In this document: one piece after another, positions 28,861-63,443 of the stretch | Position numbering within the stretch: the first letter of the stretch is position 1 | How the letters are laid out: every line of letters begins with the position of its first letter | Assembly: GCA_008632985.1 (NCBI GenBank) | Contig: QPGO01000012.1 | Coordinates: 186,001 to 250,000, forward strand | Length of the DNA: 64,000 bases | Origin: Psammoneis japonica | Lineage: Eukaryota | Direction: 5' to 3' | Notes under the pieces: generated by a model | What the model was told of the DNA's origin: nothing | The model's input: only the letters and a program-made list of their open reading frames with translations | Database searches by the model: none | Made by a program: the position numbers and the translations under genes

Positions 28861-29249
28861 GACACGTTCCAGGTCCAGGTGGGACCTCGCACTGCTGAGC
28901 TGTGACATCGACAGTTTTTTGAATTGCGTTGTATGTCGCGCACATACATTTCTACGTGATTTTGGCAAAATTTTGCATCATTTTGCAGTGCAATTGTCAG
29001 GCGATCCATTCAACAACTTTTAACATTTTTTTCTTCTGCGCCATTCTCGAGTGTCTTAAGAATGGCGCAGGGCAGGCGCGTTGTCCAAAACTTCAAGTAC
29101 GAACAGAGACACATGTGCTGCAAACTTGGCCGTTCATTTTGTGTTGAAGACAAACATGCCCATTAACCAGAGCATGAACTGCAGAGCTCGCACACAGAAT
29201 TCTGCGGGGCAAATGTCACAAAAAGTCCCACCCAGGACTGGAGCCCGTC
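28861..29249 (+). mobile_element. MITE family A, copy 1 (389 bp), TSD TAAA
   Basis: gacacgttccaggtccaggtgggac ... gtcccacccaggactggagcccgtc; taaa at 28857-28860 and 29250-29253. Colinear with the copies at 60741 and 63054. Confidence 0.92.
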
Positions 29250-29739
29250 TAAATCCCACAGAGAGGATGTGGCATGCACCAGTGCCCACTTGCCGCAGGG
29301 GGGNNNNNNNNNNNNNNNNNNNNNNNNNNNNNNNNNNNNNNNNNNNNNNNNNNNNNNNNNNNNNNNNNNNNNNNNNNNNNNNNNNNNNNNNNNNNNNNNN
29401 NNNNNNNNNNNNNNNNNNNNNNNNNNNNNNNNNNNNNNNNNNNNNNNNNNNNNNNNNNNNNNNNNNNNNNNNNNNNNNNNNNNNNNNNNNNNNNNNNNNN
29501 NNNNNNNNNNNNNNNNNNNNNNNNNNNNNNNNNNNNNNNNNNNNNNNNNNNNNNNNNNNNNNNNNNNNNNNNNNNNNNNNNNNNNNNNNNNNNNNNNNNN
29601 NNNNNNNNNNNNNNNNNNNNNNNNNNNNNNNNNNNNNNNNNNNNNNNNNNNNNNNNNNNNNNNNNNNNNNNNNNNNNNNNNNNNNNNNNNNNNNNNNNNN
29701 NNNNNNNNNNNNNNNNNNNNNNNNNNNNNNNNNNNNNNN

Positions 29740-30270
29740 GATCTTGTTTCTTGTTTGTCCTTGCTGCTGGCAGCCTTTGCACACAAAGAGCATCTTTGTT
29801 GTGTCATGTCCAATGCTTCCTCCAAGGGAATGGCATCATTGCTTGGAAACACTCATGAAAACATCTTGTGCAGGATCTTGAATTTGTTTCATCATGTTTG
29901 AATCCACCTTGTCACCTGATCTTTGAGTGGTGACAGCGCGCGGCTGCTTGTGTTCTGCACTCAAATTTCTGTCACCCTGCTCTTGCAATTGTCTCAAATG
30001 CAGAAGTTTGACCAAAGGCAAGCTGCAACTCTTTTGCCAGGCTTCATGGGGGGCATTGCAAGACAGTTGCCATGGTGCCTGTTGTGAGCACAATTGGTTG
30101 TGATGGCAGAGCTTTGCCACAAACACATGCCCGCTCTTGCAGTCAGTGGCATCATGTGTCACAAATCAGTCACTTTGCCTTTTTTTGGCAAAGACAATGT
30201 TTTTGTGCATGGCTTGTGAGTGTCATTGCTTGCTGCATTGGACAATGGCATCTCTGAACAAGCATGAGAT
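29740..30270 (-). pseudogene. Hypermutated partial duplicate of the DTW gene (5' half)
   Basis: 29881 aatttgtttcatcatgtttgaatccaccttgtcacctgatctttgag aligns to 21181 aatttgtttcataatgtttgaatccaccttgtcgcctagtcttcgag. Peptide remnants GDKVDSNMMKQIQDP and FPSNDAIPLEEAL. Confidence 0.92.
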
Positions 30271-30429
30271 GGGGGGTGGGGAGGGAGTGTGTTGCACTTT
30301 GTTTGGTGTTTGGGCATCTTGCACTTTAGATTGTTGGCAACCCTGTGTTTCATGTGACTGCAGGATCCTCTCACAAACATGCTGTGGTCACACATGGCAC
30401 CTGTCCAGACAGAAATTCACTGTCAATGT

Positions 30430-31140
30430 CAGACATGGCTTTGACCATTTTGGCAAGGATGGCTGGTCTTCTGATGCAAGACTTCACAATGTCCTCTCTG
30501 CTGCTGCCAGAAACTTTGGGTCATGGGTGTGGCCTTGAAAGCTTTTTTTGTCCTTCTGCTTGGGGCACTGAGCACAGCTCTCATTGCATCAGCAAGAATC
30601 ATGTGCATCTCACACCTGTGCTCTCGGCAGTTTGGAGAGCACACACATCTTGGCAACCTTGAGCAGAGCAATTGGTCAGTTCTTGGTGTTGGCCTCAAAG
30701 TTGGACCTGGTGAGCAAATGTTGTTCTTTGTGGCCTCGGAGCACCTTTCCCAGAGCAAGGCATGAGCCTCAATGAGGCCTTTCTCACAGGTCTGAGTCCT
30801 CTTGATGTGAACAATGTCACACTCTGTCTTGAGCTCAACATTGGCAAACTGCTTGTTCTCAGCTGTGGCAGATTCTTCAAAGCAGCTGCAGTGTCATTTC
30901 CATTGTCATGAGCCTTCTCTTGATGTGGTTGACAATGAATGGAACAGCAATCTAACAATCAGATGCTTGGCAGAGCCAACATGCTGGCAGGCACAATTCT
31001 TGATGCCCTTCCTCTTGGCAGTGGCAAACTTGCCACTCTTGCTTTCCTCTTCCAACAAAGGATCCTTTTCCTTGGCTTGTCCTTCCATTTCTCTGTCTTG
31101 TTCTTCCACTCATGATGGATTGATGAGACGGCAAAAACAT
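30430..31140 (-). mobile_element. Probable Ty1/Copia (CoDi-like) gag relic
   Basis: Fragments AHALLWERCSEATKNNI and NCREHRCEMHMILADAMRAVL resemble diatom copia gag as recalled, with Tyr positions read as His/Cys. Not database-verified. Confidence 0.5.
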
Positions 31141-32599
31141 CTCCACCAAAATCTGTGAGGTGACTCTCGTTTGCTCTGTTTTGTGGATTTCTCACAGCTT
31201 CAAGCTGGACCTGTGTCTCTTTCATCTGTTGAAATCTCCCCCCCTTCTGTGGCCATTCCAAAACCACTTTCAGTCCTCTGAGGCTGATCCTGGGGGGGGG
31301 GGGGGCAAGATTCAAACAAGATCAATGGCTGTTTCCAAGCATCAGATCACGTGCCTCGTGGGTGATGTTGCAACAAGCATGTTTTTCCTTCTTCCACATC
31401 ACACTGTCTCTCTTGGGCAGTTGAGCTTTTGGCCCAACGATCAATGAGCGAGCAAGTGGAGACAATGAGTGATGGCAAAAACACCTTGAACCTGTCACAC
31501 TGCACCAGGTGCAGCATCCAGGCAGATCCCAACTTGAACCCTTGTGTGATGCACCTTGGTCCAAAGATCTTAAAGAATGGCCCAAACTGTCAGATTTGAA
31601 GGCTTCTTGTGCGTGGCACAACAATTGCTTCCGCAGTTGATCACCATGAGAGGAAACAAGTCCAAGGCCACATGGGCGAGAGTGGCAAGCCAGCGATCAC
31701 AAGCTGCCAAAGCATGCTGCCCTTCAACTGCAACATTTGTGACTTGGGGAACCACTGGATGAGTGGCAGTGTTGTTTGCAGGAGGGTTGTCAGGGAAGGG
31801 AGAACCAGCGGGCATGCCACAATCCGGTTGCTTTTTGATGGGCTTGACAAAAAGGCAACCAAGATTTGTGAGACCGGCAGCAACAGTGATGCTGGGGCCC
31901 AGAACTTGAGGATTCAACATCTAAAAGCCCATGGTCAGAAAGAAGAGAGTTTGAACAGGAAGCAAAATTGAAGAAGCATTGCAAGAGACATTGCAATTTG
32001 TGACATCTGTGCATCATGGATGAATGATGGAACCACACTGCCATCACAATGCTGTCTTCCATGATGCATGATGTGAAAGAACAAGAAATGGTCAACACCC
32101 ATCACATCTGCCCTTTGCCGTCAAAATGGATGCAATGCTCCAACATGTGTGCAACAAGCTCACATTGTGGGGGCTGTTTTGATGAGTCCATGTGTGCACC
32201 ACTGATGGAAGACATTGGGCACCTCTCTGCCAGATGACACCACATCACAATCTTTGCTCGAGCAGATTTTTAATCTAAAGCTGACCAAGTGGCAGGTAAA
32301 ATCTTACAAAAATGTCCTGGACCTGACAATCCGAATTTAGTCGGGGACAAGTGGATGTGCAGGAAAGTGGCCAGCTCGGCCAATCTAACCCTGGCTGGCA
32401 CTCTAACTAGAGGCAGTCACTTGCACCACCACCGCCGTTGTCAAGAGAGTGCTGCAATGTCCCCAGATTGCTGTGGGACTGCACAGACTGGGAGCCAACA
32501 CAAGTGCAGTTTGCAACAACAAGAGAGCACCAAATTTGGTGTGGCATTGTTTCCTGATGGTTGAGTCGTCACTTGGCACTTTGTGCTTGGTTGTCTTCA

Positions 32600-32990
32600 A
32601 CAATGGTGACAACAACACTCAGGAACTGGTGCACTCCCACCACCACTTGCTGACCTTGACATGTTTGCATCCATCAGTGGCACAAGGTTGGTCATTTGGG
32701 ACATCACCAAACACGCCATCAGTGGCCGCATCAATGATGGCATGAGCAGTGTCATCACCAACAGTGTCACACATGCACAAGTTGAACTTGGTGTCATGCG
32801 TGCAATCCCATTTTGGACTCATGCCATCAAAGGGACAAGGTCCACAAGGAAAGTCATCAAAATCCTCCCCAGTGGGGACCAATGTCCCATCCGCCACTGT
32901 GTTGGCACAAGGAATTCTGTGCTGGCCCCGGACCAATGCCAAAGGAAGAAGTGCAGCCACAAGTGCAAAGAGAAGAGAGTTCTTGATCAT
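32600..32990 (-). pseudogene. Relic of a secreted Cys/Asp-rich protein gene
   Basis: Signal peptide MIKNSLLFALVAALLPLALVRG; ends in VKVSKWWWECTSS, a motif shared with the relic at ~33.9-34.3 kb. Confidence 0.45.
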
Positions 32991-33929
32991 TGTCATCATT
33001 GTCAACAACAAATGAATGGCAAAAGAGAATGCAACCAACAACACCAAGAGGCGCTAAAGTGTGTCTTGTGAAGACGCAGCATTGTCAGCAGAATGAGGGG
33101 CTTGCCAGTCAATGATCTGTTTTGATGCTGGCCACATGCCACACGTCAGCAATCCACATCAGCACTGTGCACCACAGACCTGCTGCACAGCAGATGCATC
33201 ACTGCACACACACACAGCAGCATCATTTCCTGTCATTGTTTTTGTCCATGACGTGTCATGGTGATGCCAGCTTCTTTGCATGTGCCCATCTACAGCAGCT
33301 GCTTGTGCAGTGCCAGCAGCAGCTGGCTGGAGCAGCAGCAGCAGACGGAGGGTCCCACCAGCACACACCTCGTGCAGTGCAGCACTGTGCATGGCATGCT
33401 GCACCTGCAAATTCTTCATCATTTAAGACATGGATTTTTGGGTCTTGAGGAGCTCATGACATTTGTCTTTTTCTTGGCCAATGTCCCATTGGATGGAATG
33501 AAGATGACCTGTGCATTGAACATCTGCCACATTGTTTGCTGTGCAGTGTGTCTCATGACACAAACTTGCTCGACAGAAGAACAATCTCAAACAAACACAA
33601 AAATTCTGATGTCATCACTTCCAGGAACATCGTGCATGATGTTGTGATGGTTTTGACAGATGTTGTTCTCATGGCAACAGCCCAGAGATGTCTGAGCACA
33701 GAGTTTTGGGAACAAGCCGTGTCAGGATTTTTGCAAGAGCACTCTGAAGTTTGAAGCTCCCCACAACTTTTTTGCCAGCTCGCTGCAACAAGCTCAGCCA
33801 TCTTCATCATGTCTCAAGAGCTCACAACCAGTGCTCAGCTGGCTGCTCAAGGAACATGAGAACATGCACTTTTTCAAAACAGCATGATGCTCAAATTGCC
33901 CACCAGTGGGGGCAAGTGGGGTGAGGTCA

Positions 33930-34340
33930 CCAAAAACCACCGTGCTGGTGGCTTTGATGGCCATGCTCCTGCTCACACTGTTGAATCAATTGCAAGCATT
34001 TTCAGCTCCATTGCAAGAAAGTCAGGATGGTGTCAAGTTTTCAAAATGGTGGGTTGAGTGCACAACCAGCCAAAGGGCAGACATTGGCAATGCCAGTGCG
34101 GAAAGGTTTGACCTTGTTTGTGGGCAAAAACCCAGCAAGTTGGATGATGTTTGTGGTGTGCTCAACATGGGTCTGCCTGTGAACAAGCCAGCCTCTCCAA
34201 ATGAAGACAACAATTTTCTTCCTCAGCCAGACAAAGAAGATTTGGCTCCTGAGTTTGAAATGCCGCCCCTTCCCAGTGAGGGCCATGTCATGGGTGCTCA
34301 AGCTCCTGCACCACCCCCTCAAGAAAACCCAAGAAGACCA
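33930..34340 (+). pseudogene. Relic of a related secreted protein gene
   Basis: Hydrophobic leader VLVALMAMLLLTLL, then VKFSKWWVECTTS and a Pro/acidic tail. Confidence 0.4.
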
Positions 34341-35169
34341 TGTGCCACTGGGCATCTGGCAAATCTTGCCAACACAGCTCCACATGCCAATGTTTGCAAG
34401 AGAGTGGTGCTGGCATGCCCAGTGGCATTGGCTCAGGGCATGGCATTCACTCTTTTGGAGGTGTCTGTGGGGCAACCTTCTTCACAGCAGCACCCCTCAA
34501 GGCAGTGGCTTGGCACATCATGGCACCAATTCCCTCAACTTGTGCACCCACCTCCTCTCATGTCCTTCTGCATTGTCAGGTGATTGCAGGTGTGCTGCAG
34601 CAAGTCCAGTGAGTGAGATGTCCAAACTTTTCCAGAAGCATCAGATGCATGTGGAGAAAGAGCATGGATGTCACAAGGAGGAGTGTTGCAAACATGGTCA
34701 GATGACCAACTTGTTGACTGGAGCAATTGCTGGTGCTCTTGTGACATGCATGCACTCCTCCTCTTGCTCTCATGATGATGATGAGCAAAAGCCAAGTGTG
34801 TGTCATTGGGGCTGGGACTCAATTGTTGCAGCTTCATTTCAACAGTTTGCCACTGCTGTTGTGTCAGCAGTTCACCAGGCAGTTTCAACAGCAACTGTTG
34901 TGATGATGATGACAAGAGTCAACCATGCATGCACCATTGTGACCAACTGTCATGAGGACTGCATTGCTGCATTGTTTTGCATTGTTGTGCTGGCACAGCA
35001 CAGTTTTCACAGCAAACCACACAAAAGACTGTCATGGTCATGATGACAAGTGGCAGCCATGTGTGCTTCATTGTGATGTGTGAGACAACTCAATTGTTGC
35101 AGCTCAGTTTCAACAGTGCAACAGTTGCTCTGCTTCATTGTCATTATGGCACTGATCCAAGATGCAACC

Positions 35170-36300
35170 AGCATCAAACAACATTTCTGGCATTTGCACA
35201 CTGGCAATCTGATTCATGCCAACTCAAGAAGTTGAAAAGTTGTGCAGCAGAACCATCAGATGAATTGTGGTCCTGCACTCTCCCTGTTCTTTACAGATGA
35301 TCTTTTCTGCAATTTGTTGGTTGCTGCCTTGAATGGCCTGTGCATGTCCCACTCAGAAAGCTGCCACACAGGTGTGGCATCTCAGCCAATGAGAAGGTCT
35401 TTGGCATTCATGGCATCTTGTTGAGATGATGTGATGAAGTGCTTTTTGTTGCTCAAATTTAAAGCAGAGTCCACCACTGCCTTTGCACCTGTTTCCCTGC
35501 ACACTTGCTCACACTTGTGGCAAACAAGGCCATTGTCAGCTTGCACTGAGTTGTGCCACACACTCCAGGGGATTGATGTGCTCTGCAAGTGAGAATCTTC
35601 CCTTTTGCATTAAAAAGAAAAACATGCTGTTCAAACAATGACCATGCATCCATCTGTCATTGAAAATTGTGCTCTGCATTCTGCCATCCTTGGAGGCTTC
35701 CATGGGTGACTTGAGGCCACCAACCATCATCCCAGACACCTTTGGTTTTCAGGAATGGGGCACTTTGGCTCTGTTGTGATGATGCACCTCAACACCCTTG
35801 CTGCCAGTGAACTCTCTGCCTTTGTGTCAGGACAACCTTGCAAAGCAAAAAGAAGCACCATCATCCAAACTGTGAAAAGTCACACAAAACTGTGTTGCAG
35901 TGCCGGTCATTGTGCAAAGACCAAGAAACAGCCCCTTTTGTCCAACACCAAGCATCCAACAATGTAAAAGGAATGTGACCTTTTGGGCAGTTCTTTGACA
36001 AACCTTGCAGCAGTGCATGGTGTGTGCATGTCATGCAATGGTTGGAATGCATCCAATGGAGCCTCAAAGGCATCATGATGATCACGTCCTGCTGCTGCAG
36101 CAATGAGAGCTTGGTCATTGTTAAATTCACACAAGTGCTGAAAGGTGGACGAACTCAGGCCCTGAAGACATGGGCGTGTGGGACATGCTTGTCTGTGCCT
36201 GCATCAACCCTCCATGGACAACATGCTCCTGAGTGAAACGCTGTTGTCCTGGTTTCTCACATGCCCCTCCGTGATGAAAAAGGGTTGAGATCATTTGCAG
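35170..36300 (-). mobile_element. PIF/Harbinger-like (DDE_Tnp_4) transposase relic
   Basis: Ordered remnants DQALI..GRDHHDAF, VGGLK (DGLK), PWSVWHNS (PGSWHDS), GAKAVVDSAL, DATPVWQLSEWDM (ATSVRQLSEWGM) and HLMVLLHNF; frameshifted. Confidence 0.75.
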
Positions 36301-38739
36301 GGTCAAGCATCGTTCATGCTGGCAACAACAATGGCACATGAGTGATTTTTGTGCCACACACCATGCAATTTTTCAGATGTCTGTCAGAGTGAAAACAAAG
36401 ATTTGCTCTAAAAGTTTGTGTGCTCTGAAAAAGATTTAGATTGGTGGCCCAGGTGGGCAGCTAAAAAATCTGTCAAAAACACACAAATCTGTGCATTTGT
36501 GCATTTGTTTTTCAGAGCAGCCCAGTGCTGCACATGCATGGCCCTGTCACAACAGGCCCTGCTTGTCAACTGCCAGGTCATTGTGACAATGAGCCAAGAG
36601 GATGCATTCAGGATGATGCAACGGATGGACCAGGTCAACGGCAAAGTTCAAATTGTTTGGCTGGTGGTGTCCATTGTGTTGTGAACATGGAGCCTGTCCA
36701 TGACACACTGTGTTGTTTTAATTGCAGTTGTTGCATGCCAATCACAGCTGTGCTGTTCCAAATGTGGTGGTTTGCTTTGTGTTGGTTGTTTGTTCTGCCT
36801 TGTTGTTGTTGTTGTCTGCAAAGCAAAATGCAGCAGCGGCAGCATCATGTCAGTCATCAGAAGGAAATGTCAGGGAAGCACCATGTGGTGGTTCTTGTTT
36901 TTGCTTGGCACTGACTGCACTGCTGCTGTTGCTGCTGTCATCATGGCTGTGGTGCAGTGGGTCATTCTTCTTGTCATGACAATGTGCGTGCATCATTGTC
37001 TCCAAACCAACAATGAGCCTTGCCAAGCAGCAGCAACACTGATGTTCACGACCATGTCCTTTTGGCACCTTGTGGCAACAACAAGATCTAGAACACCCCA
37101 ACAAAAAGAGCAAACAAGACACATCACAAGATGCCAGTCCTTGGCATTTTTGGGATGATCAAGAAGATGATCAACCCACCCAACTAGATTGTGCTGCTTG
37201 TTCTGCTTGTGATGTCTTATCAGCAGAAGGCTGTGGTGTGACATGATGTGGCAAATCAATGCCATTTTCATCAACCACACTCAAGATGCCAGACAAGACA
37301 TGATGAAACAAGTTCAAGAGGTGCGCCATTTCTGTCAAATGTGGATGTGCATGTGCCCAACATTTGGACATTGCAAACATTGCACAACAAAGTCAAATGT
37401 TCAAGTGGGAAAAAAGAGAAAGCANNNNNNNNNNNNNNNNNNNNNNNNNNNNNNNNNNNNNNNNNNNNNNNNNNNNNNNNNNNNNNNNNNNNNNNNNNNN
37501 NNNNNNNNNNNNNNNNNNNNNNNNNNNNNNNNNNNNNNNNNNNNNNNNNNNNNNNNNNNNNNNNNNNNNNNNNNNNNNNNGGGGGGGGGGGGGGGGCAGC
37601 TGGCACAGGAAATCTCTTTCAACAATCCAATGCCGTGCAAATGCGTCATGTCATGGCACTTGTCTTGGCCTGTCTGGGAGTTAAATTGACAACACTTGAC
37701 CTGACCAATGTGTTGCCATGCAGGATTGGTTGCCATGGGATTGGCCAAGATGCAGGGCAGTGCCAGTGCAGAAACTGACTTGATGGTTTGGGGTGTGAGA
37801 CATGCTGAACACAGCTGATGCTAAAAGGATTTGTTCTTGCAACAAGCACTGCTGCAAAGCACCAATGGCAAAGCACCCATTGTCTGGATGTGTGGATCCA
37901 AATCAGACTGGAGCTTCTTGTTGCAAATGATGACACAAGTTGTGATGGTGGATGCTGTCCCATTGTGATTGCAGCTTGCAACATTTGGGGTGTGTTGACA
38001 TGCTCCTGATGAACATCATGCCTGCTGTTGGATCAACCACATGGATGTCCCCATTTCCAACATGTGCTTTCCCAATGTCACACAGGCAAAGCACAGCATC
38101 GCACCAGTTTGAGTGGAAACCAGGTTGGCACCAATGTCAGCAAATGGGACAACTGCCTCCCCCTGTCTTGCTCAGTGCCTCACAGGCCAAGATGCCCTGC
38201 AAGTCTTCATGAATGGAGCCATGGTTGGGCTGCCCTTGGGTCCCTGTGATTGGCACATGACAGAATGCCACCAAATCATCCAAGCCAAGTTGGTGACTTT
38301 TTGTTGGAGCCCACCACCACAGATGGTGCACCAAATGGCAAGGCATGCTTCCTGCATGGGTCCACACTCTGGCATTGCAGGGAAATGAAAAAGTGCGCGC
38401 AGCTGGCATGCCAAAGCATTGCCAACCTTGTCAAGCCAGTGGTGGGTGTGGCAACATTCCCGCCAATGCTGAGTCCTCCCTGAAAAGGACACGTGCACAT
38501 GGAAGGACACAACATGCATGTGATGCTTGCTTTGACAATCCAGACCAAGGGTTGCCCAACACCTGACATTGTCAGCAGCATGTCAGGACAAAGACACCTC
38601 ACATCATCAGAGGGCAATGTTGATGATGAAGAGGATGCTCTCATCAAGGACATGCCACTGGCACTTTCATGGATCCACTTCTTGTTGCTCTTCTTTTTGT
38701 CCTGGCACTCCCCATGTTTTGACATGGAGAGGAGTTGCA

Positions 38740-39095
38740 ATTGCGCGGCAATGTCTTTGAACCACTTGCCAAGGCTGGCCTTGTTGGCAATGTCATTGTG
38801 GGTTCAAGATTTTGCCAGTGTGAGCTGGACTTTTCAGCAGAGTCCAAGGCAATGCATGGTTTGCCCTTGCCAATGACAGCAGTGGAAGTGACAATGCTGT
38901 ACAATGAAGCAAGAGTGTCTGTTGATGAATTTTCTGAAGAAAGGACAAAAAACCAGTGACACCCTCTGGCCTGGTCTCATGTGGAACACCCCACATCACA
39001 AATTCTTGGATGTGTGATCCTGTGTGGTGTTTGCTTTGGCATGCTCACAAGTGGATCAAGAGCACATTTTGTGCTTTTGAAAGGGGACACAGTGA
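38740..39095 (+). repeat. Diverged direct repeat, copy 1, of a protein-coding relic domain
   Basis: VFEPLAKAGLVG..GSRFCQ..AMHGL..SVDE..LWPGLM..TPHHKFLD..ACSQVDQEHILCF; matches 42720-43110. Confidence 0.85.
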
Positions 39096-42000
39096 ATGAT
39101 CAGTGATGCATGTTTCACCGGGCAGGAAAGTCACCTCCCTTCACATTTTTGAGAACTGGATGCTGGAATTTATTCTCACTGATCTGCTTCATCACAAGAC
39201 AACTTGTCTCTTTCATTGTCCAGAACTTTCTTGTTGCCAAAACATCAGTGGCACATTTCTCTTTTGACCTGGTCATTCAGTCAGCTGCTCACCACCACAA
39301 CCTGAAATGGCCTGGTCTAAAATGCAAGTGCTGCATGGGCAGAAGCAACTGAAGATGAAGGAGCCACAAAATGTGTTGGACATGCAACTTGCATCAGGCA
39401 GGGCCACACACGTCATTGTTTCATTTGCAAATCATGTTGTCTGTGAGAGCTGTGGTGCTGGGGAAACAATGTTTGCTCTCTTCAGAAGCACCGCAGCACT
39501 GGCACCTGGGTTGTCCAAAGGAGTGCTGGCATTTTTTGGCATCACTTCAACAATTTGAGTGTGTGTTGCATTGCCAAAAAAGCATGCTGTCTTTCAGTCT
39601 GGCCGGGCCTTCCTGTGTGGGGCAAGATGATGTTCAAAAGGAACAAACAGATGATGATGGATGGCAAGCAAAAATTGGCTCCTCCTTTGTGGTGGGAACC
39701 CTGGACACAGCAAAAGGAGGTGTGAAACCCGGGATGGTTTGTGCTGACATGCACACAAGTGTCAACTTTCTGAGCTTTCCCCTTGACTTGCCACCAACCA
39801 CATTTAAAAAATTGCATTGTCAACTGACAAGTTTGCTGTCAATTGAAGTGCCGTCAAATGCACGCACACAGAGTGGCACACAACACATGAGTGGAGTTCT
39901 GTGATTTAATTGTTTGGGCTTTTCTTGCACTGAACAATGTGGAGGCAACATCATGATGATCTGTGCATGAATTTCTGCTGTTGTCATGATGAGATGACTG
40001 GGTTCTTGAGTTTGGTTGCATTCTGTGTTCTCAAATCATTTTTTGTCCTGATTGTTCTTTCCTTGGTGGATCATGCTCTTTGTTTGATGGAGCAATGACA
40101 TGCAACATGCAAGGCACAATTTGCAACATGCTGGTTTTGTTGCAATTGCTGTGGTTCACACCCACAATGCCGGTTGTGTTGCATGTGCTGCGCAGTTTGC
40201 AGAGAGGATTGTGACATGGGCAAGCAGATGCAGGCAGCATTTGTCTGTTGTGTGGTGACACTGTGGTGGGAAATAGAAAGAAGTGCCCTTGCAATCAGAG
40301 ACAAAATTTCAAAAATTAGAACAAATGCTCAGAAGCAGTTTCTTTTCAGTGTTGTGTCATTTGCCAGATCCCAACATCTTGTTGCACTGCTCTTTGGTTC
40401 CATCAACTAGAGCAGGGCTTTACACCCATCCAGCAGCATGCACAGATTTGAGCCTCTCTTCAGCAGCTGTTGAAGATGCAGACCATTTCTGGTTTTAACC
40501 CCAGAGAGCATGACATGCACCCAGTTTTTAGTGTGGTTCCAGCTGTGTGCAAAAACATTGTCTGCACCACTTTCTTGTGGCTTTTGTCCAGTTGTTGCAT
40601 TGTTTGTTGCAAAGGGCACTTGGCTTGCTTTCAGGGACAGTGCGTGCTTCTCTCTTTCATTTGCAATCATGTCTTGCATTGGGTCTTTGATGCAGGCTTT
40701 GAATTTGGTTGATTTGAGCTTGAGCAAAAAGGTTGGCACAGGTCAATGCTTTTGTTGCTGTGGTTGAGCACTGCATGATCCACCTGGGATGCTGTCACAC
40801 CTGGAGCAGATGCCCCACAGTCTAAAACAACTGGTGACAAACTCTTTCACAGTTTCAGCATGACTTTTGCTGTGGTTGCCTGTGTTTTCTGTTTGCAATG
40901 CCACTGGCCACATTGTTGCTGTGCAGTGGCTGTCATCACTCTGCACCCTGCGTGTGTTTGCAATGACACTGGATGAAGTCTTCCCAGCTGCATGACCACC
41001 TGCTCTCTCCACAGTTCTTCCAGAATGTTTTGTGCACAGGAAGAGGTCCCACCATGCATCCAACACCACTTGACAATGTCAATGTGAGTCTGCTTGCTTG
41101 CCAGCCCCCCACCAACATTTGTTGTGGCTCCAAGCAAGACCCATTGTCGCAGAGCAAAGGCAGCAGCATGCAAATGACAACAGATCATTGTTCCACATTG
41201 GTTTGCACTGCACACCACTGAACCATTGTCAACTGCACTCCATTCAGCAGCAGAGCATTGGTGTCATCACCCCAGTGGCAACATTGACAGATTTGGGGAT
41301 GAACACAAAGATGCTTGCATTGGATTTGAAGATGACACCAGCTCTAAAACACAAATGCTGCAATTTCATTCAAGGAAAACTTTTCTGATGAACCCCGTGA
41401 GCAGACAAAAACAATGACGCTGACATCTTTCACCAACAAGCAGACTTGCCATTGCCTGCCTGCTCTCCCTTGGTGGAAAAAGCTGCTGCGTAGATTCGAG
41501 ATGTGGGAACAATTTGCAATGACATGAACGTGATGCTGGTGGAAAATGCCATTCTTTTCAACACCTTGACCAAGGTGGGTGCACATGTGCAAAATGCAAA
41601 ACAGCCATTTGCAGTGCAGTCTGTCCCTTGGAACGTGCTGCAGACTCAAAAGGAACACTCAGAACACACACCATTGCACTGCAAAAATGTGTGCTTTGTT
41701 TTAAGATTCCAAGATGATTTGTCTCAAGTTTCTGGCACTGCATTGGGTTTGTTTGGAAAGCAGTTGTTTTGCCATTTGCAATCCCTGCACACCACCCAAA
41801 ATGGCTGTGGCAAATCCTGTGACAATTCCTTGTTTTTGAGCGGTCATCCTCCAGACTTGGAGATGTCATCCAAGGCGTTTTTGAGGCTGCCCCTGCTTGT
41901 CAATGTCAACAGATCATTTCAAATTGGCAAACCATGATGCACAGAGCTCCAAGATGAGATGAGGACATTTGCATTGTCATTGAGCAGTGCTTGTTCCACG

Positions 42001-42719
42001 TGTGCAGCCGGCCTTTTGGAAACCATGGAGACATCCCAGCAGGACAACTTTGCAAGTCCACAGCATTGTGCAGCATGCAAGTGACATCAGGCATGGTCTC
42101 CTGTGCTGTCAGCAGGGCCTCAACTCATTGCATCTTGCATCTTGCTTGCTTGCTTGCTCCAAGGGGCCAAAGGAGAAAGGGGAAGGTGACCAACCATGGG
42201 AGGCACTCCTGATGCTGACATTCAGGCCATTGCCAGTTTCTGTCATTTCTTCATGGAACACAGTGATGACAGAATTGTCCCAACTTTGGATTTGTCTCAT
42301 CAACAGGATTTAGGAATCCCAAAAGACAACCACAGGGATGTCATCCTTGCAAATGACAAGGTTGTCAAGCATGAGGAACAGAAAACCCAAAAGCAGCAGA
42401 TCAAATCACATTGTTGTCGACATCCATTGTTGCAAGATGAGCTGACACAGGAGGAAGTTTTGGCTCTCCATGTTGCTGTGCTCCATGTCTCCTTGCAGAC
42501 TCAAGACTCCACTTTGTTTTGCAGCCCACTTTCTGATTTTTGTGCAAATTGACACTGTCCAAAAAGAGTTGAATTTTGGAATGAGTTTGAGCCATCTGCC
42601 AACAATTCTTGTGCTGGCCAAGAGCAAGAAATCATTTCAGTTCTAGATTCCACAATGATGGACAGCACGGGTGATCTTGGGGGTTGCGTGGAAGAGAAAG
42701 ATGAGAAGAAATGCACAGA

Positions 42720-43110
42720 TGACAGAGTTTTCCAACCCCTCAAAAAAGCTGGTCTCATTGGCACTGCAACAAGAGGCTCAAGATTTTGCCAGGGCAACCC
42801 CAACTTTTCAGTGACAGTGCCAAGCAACAAAACAAAAACAGTTGGAAGGGCCAAGAAGGCAATGCATGGTTTGCTCTTGTCAATTGCTGCACAGGAAGCA
42901 GCAGTGCAGTGCAATGATGTGAGGGCATCTGTTGATGAATTGGATGACGAGAGGTCAAACCACCAGCGCAACGCCCTCTGGCCTGGTCTCATGCACGGCA
43001 CTCCACATCACAAATTTTTGGACACATGGTCCTCAATGGTGTTTGCTGTGGCATGCTCACAAGTTGATCAAGAACACATTTTGTGCTTTTAAAGAGGGGC
43101 ACCGTGACAG
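42720..43110 (+). repeat. Diverged direct repeat, copy 2
   Basis: VFQPLKKAGLIG..GSRFCQ..AMHGL..SVDE..LWPGLMHGTPHHKFLD..ACSQVDQEHILCF. Confidence 0.85.
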
Positions 43111-43947
43111 GTGAGAAGAGGAAGTGTGCGCCAGTGATGCACAGTTCATTGGGCAAGAAAGTTGCCTCCATCCGCGGGCCTTCTTCTGCTTGATTGAATG
43201 CAACAATGTACAACCACACCTTGACAAAAATGGGCTTGCTCAGGAATGGCCCAAAGGAAAACCAGATGAGCTGAAGAAGAGACCCATTTCTGGGTCCGAT
43301 CAAGGAATGTCCAAAAGAACACTTTGTTTTAAGTGTGGTGGCTTTGATGTGGGTGAAAGTCAAGACAGTTCAAAATCTTGGAAGCTCATGATCTGCAATT
43401 GTGGCATGAAGACACCAATGACAAAATGCTCTGCTGGTTGAAACATCTTCATTTTTGAACACTGTCTCACCCTGGTGCTGCACTGAGTTGTTTGCATTCC
43501 TGTCCATTTTGACTGTCACATGGAGATTGAACATGCAGTCAACCAATTGGCACACACGATGATTTGCAGAAAGCAATTGCCAATTTGGCTGGGACCTCCA
43601 CCTCCAAAAGTTGGACCTGTCACTTCAAAAAGTTTTTTGATGTTGACAGACGGAAAAAGAATTTTTGTGGAAATTTGAGATCAATGCTGCACATGTCCCA
43701 CTGCATCGGCATTGGTGTTGCTGATCAATGAAGCAAGAAAAGACACGCAAGTGCAACTTTGGGACACATGACTGAAAATCATGTCCCCGCTCATTTATTT
43801 AATTCGGGAAAAGTAATAAGGCGCTGCCAGACTGGCTGACTGACTCGACGGAATAGACCAGATTGAACATCAACTTGCCCGCTGCTCCTGACTCGATCGC
43901 ATATATTACGTTTGAGTCTTGAGCAATTTCAATGTCGAAAACTGGAT

Positions 43948-46834
43948 TCATTTTTTAGTGTTGACAATCTGTCCACGGAATCGTTTGATCCTTCTATCCT
44001 TTTTGTCCAAAACCAGGTCCACAAATTTGGATGCTTTGTAAACGCGTCGGGGTGTACCATCTTGCGCTTCTTCTCCGGGTGGCAACATAGGGACATCGAT
44101 TGTTGTGTTTCGGGAGAGAAAATACATTTCTTTGCCTGCGTCATAAAAGACTTTCACCTTGACCAGTGTTTCAACGCCCTCTTTCACGGCGTCCCCTATG
44201 CGTCGGAAGTCACCCTGAACATTGGCCCTGAAATACATTCCTGGCGGCAAAGCAACCGGGTCCTGTCTTACAACTGCTTTACCGTTTCGCCTCAATCGTA
44301 TTTTAACGAGCACCGGATCTTGAAGATACATGTATTTGGTGGTATCAACAATGGCATCAAAAGGCATTGACGATGACTTGATCTGGAGTGCCGAATCATT
44401 CTCATAGTTTGCTGTACCGTATCGTTGATAATCGTTAGTCTTGCAGTAGTCGTTGAGGTGGTTGGGAGACACATTGAAAACTTCGCAGTACTTCGGGAAA
44501 GCTTTTGTAAGCGAAAGGTACGTGCAGCATGAAAAACGTTCGTTCACTGCCCCCACAGTCCCACTCAAATCTTGCATGTATGTTTTTCCTGATATAAAGT
44601 ATTTGCTTCCTTGGCAGCCTGGAATGCACCTGACCTTGTCGTATCCTGCGGGTGTGTTCCCAACTAGGTCAGCCCATTTCTCGCATGAGCTCGTGACAGA
44701 GCAGTTAGGATCATCGCCACTTCCATCTCCATAGGTATATTCATCATTTAATTCAAATAACGAGTGACCGAGCTCATGTACTGCAACGAGGGCTCCTGCT
44801 GGATGGGTAGACATAGTGGCAATGTTTTTCGATGGATAGCCAGCGCCCCCATATCTGGCATCATTGTGGATTGCAACGATCTGTAAATTGGCACCAATTG
44901 AAAAACATTTGCTCGCAAGGGTTTCAGTAATCTCAATATCGCAACACCTGCGAGTGAAAAATATTCATTTAATTGGACGTTCCCTTGAAGCGCAAGAAAA
45001 AGTCCTGTTGTGACCAAAAACTTACAGTAGACGATCAATACCGGCACATCCGTAATCACAGAAAGATCCGCTCATTCCAGGGGGGTCGACATAAAACACA
45101 TTCAGCTGATCTACATCTTTCCCAAACATGTTGTAGTTCCCGAAAAAGTGAGTTGTCTTCATAACGTGTTCACGCCAGGCCTCGTGCGTGCTCGAGTTGA
45201 ATGCAGATCCAACAAACACAACGATAATCGCGTTGGTGTGAAATGGAGTCCCGTAGTGGTGCTTAATTGGGTGGCACTCAACCGAGGCCATGCAGACTCC
45301 ACTACGACATGTTCTTGAAATGCATTCCTTGTTTGAAGAACATGTCATTCCTGTAGTTTTTGGGGTTATTTCTTGAATCGAAATCGTAGGGGTATGTGTT
45401 GGCGCCTCCGCTTTGGAAACCGGCGGATGAGGACGCTTGAGCATCGACTCATGTATTTGTTCAGTGGCAGATAACGATGGGGGGTCCGTTGGTACTAGAC
45501 TAGCGGTAGGAGTAGGCATCAGACTACGGCTCAGCGTGGATTGCGCGGTGGGGAGTTGTGTTGTTCCCCTGGTAGGTTCAGGAGATGGCGCCAAAGATTT
45601 AGAAGCAGTAGGTAGCTCTGTTCTTGGTCGTGTTGGTTTGGAAGAAGGCGAACTTGTCGGAGCCGGTGATGGCCGCAATGTAGGTGAAGTGGTGGGTTGA
45701 CCTGATGGATATTTTGTGGGAGTTAATGTTGGCACCGCTGACGGAGTGGGGGTTGCTTTGACGTTGGGGAAAAGTTGGTGAGCGTGATGGCGTTCTAGTT
45801 GGTGATTGCGTAGGCAACACCGTAGGAGAAATCGTCGGAGACCCGGTAGGAGTGACAGTTGGCCGCAAGGTGAGCGAAATAGAGGGATGTTGTGTAGGCG
45901 AGTGACTCGGATTCTCAGTAGATATCAGCATGGGTCGCAAAGAAGGTGTTGGATCCAGCTTTGCAACCCGTTGGCCACCGCCGCATGCACAACAGGCTTT
46001 CGCTGCAACGGTGCCTTTGTTTTCGAAAAAATCTCCATACTGCCGACAGTTATCGTCCTCTCCATACCAATCGCAGTCGTACTGCTCACCGTCACCGTCA
46101 TACCAGCCTGCAGGAGAATCACTACAAAACAATTCGATTTCATCTATTGTTGGCTTGGCGCTCGGTGACATGGTCGGCTCGAAAGTTGGGAAAGCGGTTT
46201 GTTCAACAATCGGAGGTGGCAAAATGCAAGTGACATCCAACAAGGGCTCTTTCCCTCTTTCCTCTTTCGAATAGTACTTTATCATCCAGTTCCCATCACT
46301 GGATTCGTCTGTTGTAAGAGCAAAAGAAACTACAGAATCTCCTTCTTTCACCTTTGCGTCAATGTAAGACGTGACATCAAACAAAACATAGTTCTCTTGA
46401 TCATGAAATACTGTTTGGCTGTCAATGACATGGCCAATGGGTGGTTTATTCTCCCACGTTATTGTTGATTCATCCCAAGAATCATCGTTCACGGCGTGAA
46501 TGTGATGCAACACCGGGATATCTCGATCTCGGAATACCTTGAGCATCACTTTGGCCTCCGAAACTTTGCCATTAATCCTTCCTAAATTAAATTTGAGAAA
46601 AGAATGGCGGGTTCGCCCTCGTTGCCGCATCACCTGTAGTATTTTCACGTCTCTGGCATATGGTGGAGACACGCCATTTCTAACCGTAGGATATTGCTCG
46701 TTCGTAAAAGCGTCATCGATTGGCATTTCAACGAATTCCCTTAACGAGCATGTAATAGGAACAATCAGATGCGTGGCTAGTAAAAGAAAGAGAGAAACAG
46801 CTGCCTGGCGGATTGTGCATTTTGCTTGCAGCAT
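43948..46834 (-). CDS. Secreted modular protein: DNRLRE/CBM96-like domain, small Cys-rich domain, Pro/Thr/Ser stalk and peptidase M64-like zinc metalloprotease; intron 44948-45025, frameshift near 45740-45795
   Basis: Signal peptide; SFLKFNL..SWDESTITWENKP..FDVT; PTxSPT repeats; the spliced exon gives HNDARYGGAG..VAVHELGHSLFELNDEY. Confidence 0.8.
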
Positions 46835-51730: not shown

Positions 51731-51780
51731 CAAGGCGGAGAGACGTCGAATACCGGTATTGACTTGCAAGACGTCAAACA

Positions 51781-52638
51781 ATGAAGCTACTTCCATTCTT
51801 GCTTGCCTCACTGTTTGGACTGGTAGTTGTGAACGCTAGCAGTAGCGCTTCGACATCCGTGCCGACAAGCTTGAAGCAAGTATCGGCACAATCTCCAGCT
51901 GACACCGTCGAACTTCAGTCGATTGATCGACGGGGCTTTTGGGAAAGAAGGACCAAACAGTCCTTGAATGGTGGAGCCCAACAAGGCAGTGAAGCAGTCG
52001 GCAAGCCGAAAAGTAGTTTGGGAGAAAAGTTGCAAGCCGTGGTGCATGGCAAGGCACGAGGAGCTGTGGAAACCTTTCTTGAACAAACTCTTTATAGCAA
52101 AGAGAATCAACCCGAATCAAACAGACATGCCGAATGGAATGGCTTTCTTAGCGCATGGCTGCTTGTTGCCATTCCCGTACCTTTGCCGATTCTTGCGGCT
52201 GCGCTGAGTCTAAACGTGGCAATTCTGTTAGCATCGAGCTGGGACGATGCAATCAAAAACAAGTTTTTGATTGGGCTTTCTCACGGAACCATGGTGTTTT
52301 TGGTTCTTCTGCGAACACTGGAGGACATAGTTGAGCCTGAGGCCTTTCTTGTCTCTCCTCGTGTTGCTGCGATTGGCCTTAACTTGGGAACGAATCTATT
52401 CTTTGGTCATGCCGGGAGCTATAGGATCACAAAGTACCTGATGGACTCTGCTATTGGGCAGCGATGTTTTACATTCTCTTCGAATACTTACGCTAGGGGT
52501 CCGGGGTACGGCATCGTCGTTGTATCTTCTGCTAGGGCTACAGATTGCAGTGGATGGAACGCCGGGCTAACATATGTTTCGGCGCATGCTTTCTTACACC
52601 GGCATAGTCGTAGTTTCATTATAATGTGGTATTGTTAA
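51781..52638 (+). CDS. Hypothetical membrane protein with signal peptide; 3' structure uncertain
   Basis: MKLLPFLLASLFGLVVVNAS leader, several hydrophobic segments and normal dinucleotide composition. Confidence 0.5.
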   Translation: MKLLPFLLASLFGLVVVNASSSASTSVPTSLKQVSAQSPADTVELQSIDRRGFWERRTKQSLNGGAQQGSEAVGKPKSSLGEKLQAVVHGKARGAVETFLEQTLYSKENQPESNRHAEWNGFLSAWLLVAIPVPLPILAAALSLNVAILLASSWDDAIKNKFLIGLSHGTMVFLVLLRTLEDIVEPEAFLVSPRVAAIGLNLGTNLFFGHAGSYRITKYLMDSAIGQRCFTFSSNTYARGPGYGIVVVSSARATDCSGWNAGLTYVSAHAFLHRHSRSFIIMWYC

Positions 52639-52870
52639 GGTCGCACATCATGCCAGAGCAGTCGAAATCTGTATCTAGTCTAGCTTTGTTCGCGTCTTCA
52701 GCAGTTTTGGGTTGTTGTTTTCTCTCACAAGCGGCTTAACAACAGCGATTGTATGACTGGTAGACCAGATAGTCGAAGATGCTGACTTAACCAAGGCTAA
52801 AAGCATTACAGATCGACGTAATCGATTCGAATAAAAGCGCCTCTTTCTATTTATTTTTAATTCGCCGACA

Positions 52871-59457: not shown

Positions 59458-60740
59458 GTCTGTGAAAAAAGTGAACTAATATGGCTTAGAGCTGAAGATG
59501 AGTATGAACGGATACGCGGGAGACAAACGAGATGGCGTAGTAGTGAGCCACGTATTCCGATCACGACTGAGAATGCGCGGAAGACAAAGGATATGATGGA
59601 ATGACGTCGTTGTAGGGCCCTATTCCGATAACGAGTGGCAAACAACGACAATGAAGAGTGATGATGACTGATGAAAGAGAGAGAGAAAATAGTAATAGAG
59701 TCGATCATCGATCACGAGTGGAGAAGATCGAGTGAAGTCATAAGTGTCATACTGCATGCAACAGATGCTCATCATAAACAAAGCTTGCCACGTTAATCTT
59801 GCTTCAACCACATACATAAATAAAACACGCATCATGCACAATCTTATGATACTGTACTGTAAAAAAAAATACGTACTGAACATAGCAGACAGACATTTGC
59901 AAAGGACATTATTTTCTTATCTTGCCGACTCCTTTTTCGATGACCCTATCACACAAGATACAACTTCAAGGGTTGCATTGCATCCGATGCTTTGCGTGTT
60001 GCGTGGCGGCCATCTTGTTCCAGATTTCAGACCACCTCCACACTCCACAATCGAGAGCAGTTTGCGATTGGAAGTCAGCAAGATTTGAGATGCCAGAAGA
60101 ACCAAAGAAGAGCACACATGAAGTTGTTTCAAGCACACTTTCAGCCAGTTTTTCAAGCACACTTTTGCGGTGCACAACCAGCGTTTTTTTTTTGCAGCCT
60201 TGTCTTTCAGCTGCAGAGAAGAAGCTCTCTGAATGCTCACACCGCCCTGCTGTCAGTGCATGACAATGCACTGCACATCTTTTGCAGCACCAGGTGCAGC
60301 TCTGTGTGCACTGGCATTGAAGTTGCCTGCGTGTTTTCAGCGCCAGGTTCCCCGCAGAACAGCCAACCACCATGGCGTCTTCTTCCGTCACTGACGGCAG
60401 CCACACCCCAACTAACACCAATGGTGCCACTGTGGCAGATGATGTCACTGTTGACCAGTCCTCCATCAAACTTTCTTCCAAGCCGACAGAGCGTCAGTTC
60501 GAAGAGATCACCACCCGCTTTGAGGTTCATGGCAAAGAATCGTCATGCAAGCCCATGACCCTCGCTGCCGCCCATCTGCAAGTCTTACAGCAAATTTTGT
60601 TCACTTGCCACAAGGACATTCAGATTCTTGACAACCACAACAACCGAGTTACGAGTGTCAACGTGGCAGAATGGATTGCTTCTCTCCAACATGAACAACA
60701 CTTTACCATCATGACGAATCGCAGCGGCAAAAAACGTCCG

Positions 60741-61132
60741 GACGAGTTCCAGGTCTAGGTGGGACCTTGCACTGCTGAACTGTGACATTGATGGTTTTTT
60801 GAATCGCGTCGCATGTCATGCACGTACATTTCTGCGTGATTTTGGCAAAATTTTGTGTCATTTTACAGTGCAACAATTGTCGGGCGATCCATTCAACAAC
60901 TTTTGACATTTTTTTCTTCTGCGCCATTCTCGAGTGTCTTAAGAATGGCGTGGGGCAGGCACATCATCCAAAACTTTGAGTGCGGGCAGGGGCAGATGTG
61001 CTGCAAACTTGGCTGTTTGTTTTGTGTTGAAGACAAACATGTCCATTGGCCAAAGTGCGAACTGCAGAGCTCGCACGTGGAATTCTACGGGGCAAATGTC
61101 ACAAAAAGTCCCACCCAGGACTGGAGCCCGTC
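60741..61132 (+). mobile_element. MITE family A, copy 2 (392 bp), TSD TCCG
   Basis: tccg|gacgagttccaggtctaggtgggac ... gtcccacccaggactggagcccgtc|tccg. Confidence 0.92.
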
Positions 61133-63053
61133 TCCGGCAACTCATCATTCATGTCACCGCATCCTCACAAAGACTCCACTTCATGAAATTTGCTCCCATC
61201 CACATGTCCAGAGCATTCTGGACTCAAACAACATGGGCATGAAACGTCATTCTGGAACGAGTCGGACATTGACACGGCTGCTCCGGCATGTCACATTGCT
61301 GCCGCCACTGAACATGCTCCGGTTGACAAAGCTGCCAAGTTGTTCATCAGTGACCTCGGAAGCTTCCAGACTGGGGTGCCACAGTTTTGCCTGGCAGCTG
61401 CTTCAATCCGTGCCGATGACGACGGACTTGCCACCCCACTTCGCACAGTGACTTTCACCATTGAAGCATTGCAAGGAGAATGTCGCACTGCCGGCAAGGT
61501 CTTGCTTTGCGCTTCAAACAAACTTCTGACTCATGTTGTGATGGCAAAAACTTGTTGCACCTCTCCTCTTGCCTTCTGCAACGCGGTCAAAATGCAAGCT
61601 TGACGCAATGAAGATGCCTTTGTTGCGCTGCTGTTGAACACTGCCCCGGACATGATGTTTTGTTTCAAGAACCACCTCAAGGCATTGACTGGTGTGAAGG
61701 ACATGTTCAAATCAGCGATTGTTGATGGACGTTGCAACATTCTCGTGGACCGTCGGAACTTCAAAACCATCTGAGCAGAGATTTCAACGTGCGTCATGAA
61801 TTTGATTCCATCTGTTTCAAAAGAATCCCACCCATCTCCCACATTTTCGGAACCCCCTCAAGTGTCTGGAGTCCTTGAAGAATTGTCAGACACTAGCAAA
61901 TCCATCGTGTTGGCTGGCATTCACAGTCTTGAATCTCTTGCATTTTCGGATGTCTCTCCATTGACTGATCATCAAGCTTCCGGTCTGACTCAACCTTCTC
62001 TGAATCAACCTGCTGGCTGAGGATGCGCTGGAAGAGGTCTCCCTGGATGAGGAACCACTCAAGGCTCGGCGGCACCTCCTCACATTTTCACTCACTGCTC
62101 CCAGTTTTTGCCACCCACCTTTGGATTTCCAGGATGTTGAAGCTTGACGTCTTCCCCGCATTCTCGCGCACAAGCCACACAGACAACCACTGGCTCATCA
62201 ATTGCATCAGTGCAATTGGCTGAAGTCCAACAGACCATGAATCAAGTGCAAGAGAAACATGACAAAGCCCTTGCTGAGATGCGTGAACAACATTCTCGGG
62301 ACATTGAGGCACTGAACACTGCCTTCACTGCTCAGCACATGAATGATGTGATGGCCATGCAGGACCGCTGCTCCCAACAACTGTCTGGCATGCAGTCACA
62401 GATGAATCAGATTGTCCAATTGTTGCAGGCAAGCCAACCCACACAGAGCATCATGCGGAAATGTCCTGACAACAATGAGACGCCAGAAAGGTCTGTTGAC
62501 CATTGAGACAAAGAGAAGGATTTGTCGCACTTCTCAGTGTCGCAAGTTCTCATTTCAAGCTGCCTCAGAACCTCTGCATTGTTGTGAGCCCCAGTCTTCT
62601 CCTTGGAGGAGCGCGGCCCAACCATGAACAGCAAGTCTTCCTCAGCTGCACCTTCGACTGCATGGCAACACACACATTAGATGGCAGACACCACACTCCT
62701 TCAGCAGATCGTGGAATTGACTTCTCCTGTCTCAAGACAAATGGGCCGATTGGGCACGAATTGAGGTCCAAGCTGCCACACCACACTGGACTCTGCGCCT
62801 TCAATGCCAATGGATGCAAGTTTGACAAGCGCGGCGGGGATCTTGATGTTTGCTGTCAGATTGCTGATGAAATCCAAGCGGACGTGGACAGAGTTTTGGA
62901 AATGTGTTTGGATGCCACCCAGTTTGATGTGCTCTCAGTGTGCAGGTCTACGATTTCAAAGTCCCTCCTCCACAGGAGAGGCACCTTTTCTTGCAGTTCC
63001 ACACCCTTTTCTACCCAATGCAAACCGGGCGGCACTGCAATCACATCGTGCAA

Positions 63054-63443
63054 GACGCGTTCCAGGTCTAGGTGGGACCTCGCACTGCTGAACTGTGACA
63101 TCGACAGTTTTTTGAATCACGTCGTATGTCGCGCACGTAGATTTCTACGTGATTCTTTTGATATTTTGTGTCATTTTACGGTACACTTGTTGAGCGATCC
63201 GTCCAACAACTTTTGACATTTTTTGTTACAGCGCGATTCTATAATGTCTTAAGAATCGCGTAGGGCAGGTGCATTTGCAAAAACGTCGAGTGGTAAGAGG
63301 CATAATTGTACCACAAACTTGGCCGTTTATTTGATGTTGAAGATAAATATATCCATTAATTAAATTCTCGTACTACGGAGCTCGCACGTAGAATTCTACG
63401 GGCCCAATGTCACACGGAGTCCCACCTAGGGCTGGAACGCGTC
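63054..63443 (+). mobile_element. MITE family A, copy 3 (390 bp, least eroded complete copy), TSD GCAA
   Basis: gcaa|gacgcgttccaggtctaggtgggac ... gtcccacctagggctggaacgcgtc|gcaa; 25-bp TIR with 2 mismatches. Confidence 0.95.

Follow-up and report, generated by a model that had tools for sequence, protein, structure and literature searches.

Successive MITE insertions in repeat domains of the diatom Psammoneis japonica as a probable record of an A-to-G mutator acting at TA, superimposed on CpG decay

Among the sources considered here, a single experimental study, a 2026 preprint by Mettrop et al. on the chlorarachniophyte Bigelowiella natans (bioRxiv 10.64898/2026.01.13.699255), describes A-to-G mutation of DNA directed at TpA. 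In a mutation accumulation experiment, 231 of 302 new mutations fell in two integrated viral regions, and 230 of these 231 were A-to-G or T-to-C changes, all at TpA and yielding TpG or CpA (bioRxiv 10.64898/2026.01.13.699255). Only some of the lines were affected, and the rate per site and generation was about 1e-7. The targets are integrated DNA of nucleocytoplasmic large DNA viruses (NCLDVs) and virophages, the TpA-depleted coding sequences are enriched for DDE/transposase and reverse transcriptase domains, and an ADAT2-like deaminase has been proposed as the agent (bioRxiv 10.64898/2026.01.13.699255). Here we describe a comparable signature in 64,000 nucleotides of the diatom Psammoneis japonica (contig QPGO01000012.1, positions 186,001 to 250,000; hereafter the window), where all four copies of a MITE (miniature inverted-repeat transposable element) sit in DNA depleted of TA. 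We consider it likely that in repeat domains of this diatom TA is converted to TG or CA by an A-to-G mutator superimposed on CpG decay, and that successive insertions of the MITE have recorded the process.

The signature is of the same kind as that of the TpA hypermutation in B. natans, in a different branch of the supergroup. In both organisms TpA becomes TpG or CpA on either strand; in the window this is seen at 15 of 26 TA sites in each of two MITE copies, numbered 1 and 2 below, and at 9 of 13 in a duplicated gene fragment. Discrete foreign or repeated domains are affected in each case while genes are spared, and the depletion of TpA is accompanied by an excess of CpA plus TpG. Coding sequences of transposable-element type are among the depleted sequences of B. 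natans, and DNA of a transposable element, the MITE, is affected here. However, the present host is a diatom and thus a stramenopile, the targets are the MITE and unrecognised repeats without recognisable viral DNA, and the depletion is deeper, with an observed/expected ratio (o/e) of 0.00-0.1 compared with a Rho of 0.45 in the NCLDV region of B. natans. The near-exclusive A-to-G/T-to-C spectrum of that organism is matched in the window only at 25.5-28.5 kb; CG is also scarce in most domains (o/e 0.03-0.28), which reads as a second, superimposed process that is separable from the TA loss. The words 'CpG', 'MITE', 'trinucleotide' and 'context' do not occur in the preprint's main text, and the preference for a 3' pyrimidine proposed below is inferred from the present data. 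Finally, the process in B. natans was measured in real time, whereas here it is known from the trace left in the sequence.

Fungal repeat-induced point mutation (RIP) consists of C-to-T changes, mainly at CpA, and raises TpA. The diatom signature resembles RIP in being a transition-only hypermutation that inactivates repeats and leaves domains of skewed dinucleotide content. However, TpA is destroyed here (o/e 0.03-0.1), CpA is raised, and the change is A-to-G. Decay of methylated CpG in silenced transposons likewise converts CG to TG or CA in repeat domains and accounts for the CG half of the signature, but it cannot remove TA and would instead create it, and in the window TA is lost where CG is intact. 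TadA, ADAT2 and their DNA-acting derivatives convert A to I where the A follows U or T, as in the target proposed here, and the native target of bacterial TadA has a pyrimidine after the A; we regard this link as an analogy only. A literature search for TpA-directed mutation in diatoms returned only the B. natans preprint and papers on fungal RIP, and a search for papers on diatom MITEs returned nothing specific.

The dinucleotide content of the window is sharply bimodal in 2-kb bins. Bins that hold genes have a TA o/e of 0.37-0.78 and a CG o/e of 0.79-1.18. The depleted bins at 12-18, 30-44 and 50-52 kb have TA at 0.03-0.13 and CG at 0.03-0.36, with TG and CA both raised to 1.65-2.16. The edges of the domains are sharp at the resolution of 500-bp bins, and neither AA nor TT is depleted in the window as a whole (o/e 1.17 and 1.18). 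TA and CG are depleted together at 12000..18300 (TA 0.04, CG 0.04-0.13) and at 29740..44000, to the right of MITE copy 1 past a gap of Ns (2-kb bins of 30001-44000: TA 0.03-0.10, CG 0.03-0.28, TG and CA 1.65-2.07); a further depleted domain occupies 50000-52000. To the left of copy 1, in contrast, the domain at 25500..28860 is depleted in TA only (TA 0.00-0.17, CG 0.74-1.07), and in 500-bp bins from 25.5 to 28.5 kb TA falls to 0.00-0.07 with CG intact at 0.74-1.07. Because TA is wiped out where CG is intact (25.5-28.9 kb), TA loss does not need CG loss, and two processes overlap in the window. The remaining domain, at 60000..63628, is the TA-depleted repeat that serves as host to copies 2, 3 and 4. 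With the MITEs excluded, its TA o/e is 0.00-0.14 and its CG o/e 0.37-0.68; in 500-bp bins at 60-63 kb the values are 0.00-0.07 and 0.37-0.86, with TA at 0.20 in the bin that holds copy 2.

We identified the copies by self-comparison and by a profile search (nhmmer) of the window. Copy 1 (28861..29249, plus strand, 389 bp) and copy 2 (60741..61132, plus strand, 392 bp) are eroded, with TA o/e of 0.29 and 0.19. Copy 3 (63054..63443, plus strand, 390 bp) is apparently near the family majority and has TA at 0.87 and CG at 1.51. Copy 4 (63630..64000, minus strand, TA 0.80) represents a related subfamily and is partial, as it runs into the end of the window. The strings that an earlier note on this DNA had quoted from the four copies are all present. 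Copies 1 and 2 are 87% alike and each is 78-79% like copy 3; the interior of copy 4 is far more diverged (nhmmer E value 1e-34, compared with 1e-141 or lower for copies 1-3). Each full copy has inverted ends of about 25 nt, which match at 23 of 25 positions in copy 3 and at 20 of 26 aligned positions in copy 1. All three complete copies are flanked by 4-bp direct repeats, the target site duplications (TSDs): TAAA for copy 1 (28857-28860 and 29250-29253), TCCG for copy 2 (60737-60740 and 61133-61136) and GCAA for copy 3 (63050-63053 and 63444-63447).

Contigs of the public run X1 were placed on 60500-64000 at 80% likeness, giving 5960 pieces, to which run X2 added only one. Summed contig depth over the MITE copies is 16,000-294,000, compared with about 40 for single-copy contigs, which suggests that the assembly contains hundreds to thousands of members of the family. 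The flanks within the host repeat, at 113-881 compared with about 35-41 in single-copy contigs, are moderately repeated. In addition, some contigs bridge copy 2 (60736 or 60741 to 61152) and copy 3 (63041 to 63444). Such contigs could represent either empty alleles or paralogous host repeats that lack the MITE; since they join across both copies, the host repeat exists without the MITE, and together with the high depth this indicates that a high-copy MITE entered a pre-existing, moderately repeated host sequence. The element thus combines the features of a MITE: terminal inverted repeats, TSDs, small size, high copy number and sites that lack it.

The host had been described in the earlier note as a LINE. 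None of the 137 open reading frames (ORFs) of at least 90 aa (stop to stop) in the depleted domains matches a reverse transcriptase or endonuclease family of Pfam at E 0.01, although heavy mutation could mask one. No other transposable-element or viral Pfam family was found among these 137 ORFs, nor was any such family found in an earlier set of 16 ORFs. The host of copies 2-4 is a repeat without a recognisable family. The other part of that claim, that the MITEs retain more TA than the DNA they interrupt, holds: their TA o/e of 0.19-0.87 compares with 0.00-0.14 in the host.

The TA content of depleted DNA falls into three steps: the host repeat at 0.00-0.14, copies 1 and 2 at 0.19-0.29, and copies 3 and 4 at 0.80-0.87. 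These steps occur within the same depleted domains. The flanks of copy 1 are at 0.08 and 0.02, those of copy 2 at 0.14 and 0.00, and those of copy 3 at 0.05-0.11 on the left and 0.09 on the right. A loss that progresses with age, as the earlier note proposed, is supported by this series, and the three levels fit a process that acts on whatever stays long enough in the domain.

Dinucleotide counts in the full copies point to conversion. Copy 3 has 26 TA, 28 CG, 26 TG and 24 CA; the corresponding counts are 7, 18, 32 and 43 in copy 1 and 5, 17, 41 and 36 in copy 2. The sum of the four pyrimidine-purine dinucleotides is nearly constant (104, 100 and 99 in copies 3, 1 and 2), as expected if TA and CG convert into TG and CA. 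Of the TA sites of copy 3, copies 1 and 2 each retain 5, and of its 28 CG sites copy 1 retains 14 and copy 2 retains 13. The earlier note had singled out one site, which reads CACA in copy 1 (29193-29196), CGTG in copy 2 (61076-61079, plus strand), CGTA in copy 3 (63387-63390) and TA in copy 4 (63683-63684). The reading is correct, and the site is not unique, being one of three aligned sites with CA in copy 1, TG in copy 2 and TA in copy 3.

With copy 3 as the outgroup, we polarised the terminal branches leading to copies 1 and 2. All 23 changes private to copy 1 are transitions, as are 21 of the 22 private to copy 2. The ratio of transitions to transversions is thus 44:1 on the terminal branches compared with 30:27 on the deep branch (Fisher p 8e-8). 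Each terminal branch lost 6 of 11 TA and 6 of 19 CG, whereas TG and CA sites changed at only 7 of 41 in copy 1 and 4 of 41 in copy 2 (Fisher p 0.019 and 0.003 compared with TA loss). By our classification, about 6 private changes per copy lie at TA, 7-8 at CG and 8-9 elsewhere, the last being about 3% of other sites; by our calculation, the loss per dinucleotide on these young branches is about 15 times background for TA and about 7 times for CG. Both strands were hit within a single copy, as the private changes of copy 1 include four from TA to CA and two from TA to TG, in agreement with the earlier claim of A-to-G change on either strand. That claim had named TA alone as the target, which leaves out the conversion of CG to TG or CA; by our classification, roughly one private change in three is of this type (8 of 23 for copy 1, 7 of 22 for copy 2).

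Four independent lines decide the polarity at the MITE sites, with TA as the ancestral state. At position 61079, the G of the TG in copy 2, the placed contigs have A in 25723 of 31319 depth (82%, 59 contigs); at this one site where it was seen, the family consensus does not have the CA or TG that the earlier note had named as a refuting outcome. Among the best 40 of 591 variant rows, 12 lie in copy 2 and only one in copy 3 (63155), which suggests that copy 3 differs little from the family majority. Copy 3 also holds more CG than the other copies, in addition to more TA (28 CG, o/e 1.51), and is therefore not a product of CpG decay. The fourth line is a mutated duplicate of part of the DTW-domain gene (21038-21527), located at 29741..30238 on the plus strand just past the gap of Ns on the right-hand side of copy 1, with about 500 bp and 75% identity. 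With the functional gene as reference, the duplicate has kept none of 13 TA (7 became TG and 2 CA) and only one of 32 CG (14 became TG and 12 CA), compared with 31 of 42 TG, 29 of 37 CA and 20 of 30 AT. A-to-G change has affected 12 of the 13 TA sites compared with, by our calculation, about 13% of AA/TT sites. This duplicate of part of an intact gene lies in a depleted domain and gives the direction as one from TA and CG to TG or CA. A further repeat, with copies at 38846-39095 and 42856-43107, has 6 TG/CA discordances between them over about 250 bp, as expected from independent resolution of one ancestral dinucleotide.

The sites at which TA survives carry a sequence context. Depleted DNA holds 111 TA in 28.6 kb, compared with 1252 in 30.8 kb of normal DNA. 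The survivors are preceded by a pyrimidine in 86 of 111 cases and followed by a purine in 81 of 111; examples are TCTAAA, TTTAAA and TCTAGA. In the TA-only and TA+CG classes of domain, the density of surviving YTAR is 26-33% of normal compared with 1-5% for RTAY, RTAR and YTAY, and in the small 60-63 kb class YTAY survives like YTAR, at 16-19%. The excess of products is skewed correspondingly: in the TA-only domain it is 15.7 per kb for TGY compared with 2.8 for TGR, and 8.9 for RCA compared with 4.5 for YCA. Among the polarised events, a new TG is followed by a pyrimidine in 16 cases and by a purine in 6, and a new CA by a pyrimidine in 5 and by a purine in 12. The protection of YTAR is symmetric between strands. 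The roughly tenfold better survival of TA flanked by Y and R suggests that the target is an adenine in 5'-TAY-3', on either strand. We also observed that the TSD of copy 1, TAAA, retains its TA on both sides although TA o/e in the flanks is 0.02-0.08; its context is YTAR.

We read the history as follows. In discrete, repeat-rich domains nearly every TA, and in most of them also nearly every CG, has become TG or CA. The high-copy MITE has inserted into these domains at different times, and its copies record the process, from the unmutated copies 3 and 4 through the partly eroded copies 1 and 2 to the saturated host repeat. Since their divergence, copies 1 and 2 have lost about half of the TA and about a third of the CG that then remained, almost only by transitions. 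The CG part would be the ordinary decay of methylated CpG. The TA part would be due to a context-specific A-to-G DNA mutator acting on either strand of silenced or repeated DNA, for which the likeliest agent is a candidate adenine deaminase that prefers 5'-T-A-pyrimidine-3'; such an enzymatic mechanism is inferred from the pattern of change.

Several observations weigh against this proposal or narrow it. Nine of the TA sites of copy 3 carry an identical TG or CA in both copies 1 and 2. These shared differences are due to descent rather than to independent hits, and they may predate insertion, having been present in a mutated master copy; the earlier suggestion that independent hits accumulate after insertion is thus supported by the private changes but does not extend to these nine sites. 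Two of the private changes in copy 1 create TA (29022 and 29099), and copy 2 has A-to-G changes outside TA (60986, 60992 and 61049). Copies 3 and 4 are untouched although they lie in depleted DNA. This fits a very recent insertion, or a process that is episodic or has ceased, equally well; likewise, the three levels of TA content are equally compatible with episodic activity that had stopped by the time copies 3 and 4 inserted. Clustering of TG versus CA by strand was not found in the depleted domains (runs test, z -0.58 to +1.94 in six of six stretches), so bursts of mutation on a single strand have no support. The alignment comprises three full copies and one partial copy, the variant rows listed are the best 40 of 591, and the family consensus was seen directly at one TA site. 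The placed contigs probably derive from the assembly's own sample and are not independent of it, and the inference of TAY uses a genic tetranucleotide baseline and events that are in part non-independent.

The same states could also be read in the opposite direction, with CG ancestral and deamination of methyl-CpG on one strand and then on the other leading through TG or CA to TA, in which case copies 3 and 4 would be the most decayed. The states do differ by transitions only, and at one site copies 1 and 2 have CG where copy 3 has TA (tcgagt compared with tataat). In addition, the palindrome by which the earlier note had polarised TA as ancestral is equally perfect with CG in both arms and cannot decide the polarity alone. 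However, this direction is very improbable given the high CG content of copy 3, the majority A at 61079, the small departure of copy 3 from the majority among the best 40 of 591 rows, the loss rather than gain of TA in the depleted domains, and the gene-fragment duplicate, which shows the change from TA to TG or CA directly. Alternatively, copies 1 and 2 may differ from copy 3 by inheritance, having come from a master that was already different or mutated, so that the series would reflect the source copied rather than erosion in place. The 27 transversions and nine TA differences that copies 1 and 2 share relative to copy 3, as well as their closer likeness to each other, are as this would predict. 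The 22-23 private changes per copy, which are transitions in 44 of 45 cases and fall preferentially on TA and CG, are not. In addition, only a minority of the family shares the G that copy 2 has at 61079, and the same process has saturated the DNA flanking both copies. We consider inheritance an unlikely explanation of the series.

Two further alternatives accept the direction of change and concern the agent of the TA part. Loss of TA might result not from deamination of adenine but from an error-prone enzyme resembling polymerase eta, which would be recruited when deaminated methyl-CpG is repaired in heterochromatin. Such an enzyme prefers an A that follows A or T. TA and CG loss coincide in most domains, and copy 2 has A-to-G changes at AA and GA beside TA changes (60985, 60986, 60992 and 61049), both of which would agree with this. 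However, TA is gone at 25.5-28.5 kb with CG still intact there, the window as a whole shows no depletion of AA or TT, A-to-G change in the duplicate is far more frequent at TA than at AA/TT, and the protection of YTAR is symmetric between strands; we consider the polymerase quite unlikely. Editing of A to I in transcripts of the element by an ADAR-like enzyme that prefers a 5' U, followed by reverse transcription and reinsertion, appears extremely improbable. The element, which has inverted ends and target duplications, is a DNA transposon, both strands have changed within a single copy, and DNA that has not transposed, namely the gene-fragment duplicate and whole domains, is continuously affected. 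To our knowledge, ADARs are an animal family. The 5' T preference seen here does agree with the neighbour preference of ADARs as given in the B. natans preprint (bioRxiv 10.64898/2026.01.13.699255).

We return to the A-to-G mutator superimposed on CpG decay, and to a broader form of this proposal that we put forward tentatively and lean slightly against on balance. Diatoms would possess an enzymatic A-to-G mutator of 5'-TAY-3' in silenced repeats, of the same kind as the B. natans process and possibly homologous to it. In that case, 'reverse RIP' directed at TpA would be a long-standing means of genome defence in the stramenopiles, alveolates and Rhizaria (SAR), directed against ordinary transposons as well as viral insertions and independent of cytosine methylation. 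A second, distant case, if true, would show that the process is not peculiar to a single lineage, and would narrow the search for the enzyme to genes common to both hosts. The trace is also much deeper here, affects ordinary transposons, and can be told apart from CpG decay. A TAY target with YTAR protected would provide a sharper motif for biochemical tests.

Saturation also has consequences for annotation: domains that lose TAA and TAG stops acquire long spurious ORFs, and transposons within them become unrecognisable. The TA-only domain holds a 640-aa ORF (26015-27934, minus strand), adjoining copy 1, and a second long ORF of 376 aa, also on the minus strand, within 25500-28860. The 640-aa ORF has no Pfam match and no homologue at E 0.001, and its look-alikes in the Atlas score at most 0.83, which is below the usable level; the 376-aa ORF has no Pfam match and no homologue. 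Both ORFs are probably artefacts of the lost stops.

Four intact genes were identified by Pfam matches of ORFs in the window: a GST gene (641-1693), a P450 gene (18836-20536), the DTW-domain gene (20602-21618) and a gene for a CBM96 protein (45599-46843). Among the 120 relatives listed for the P450, the best named ones are all diatom proteins with 40-52% identity, and none is near-identical; the source is accordingly most likely a diatom, and not B. natans. The window is most likely nuclear DNA.

Scans of metagenomes with two motifs from the MITE gave no loci and six loci, respectively. In five of these six the nhmmer match was confined to the 22-28-nt motif, and we rejected the six loci as chance occurrences because the match to the family model did not extend beyond it. 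Copies 3 and 4 are arranged tail to tail with 184 bp between them. Their final 74 nt (63371-63444 and 63629-63702) are 95% complementary despite their differing interiors, and the two copies are members of two subfamilies with common ends. Within copy 2, a run of plus-strand A-to-G changes lies at 60985, 60986, 60992 and 61049, where the family majority is A. The strand ratio of A-to-G plus C-to-T changes is 17:4 in copy 2 (p 0.007) and 15:8 in the opposite direction in copy 1 (p 0.21), and we have not built on this ratio. A 64-bp tandem duplication with about 85% identity is located at 12656-12784, inside a depleted domain.

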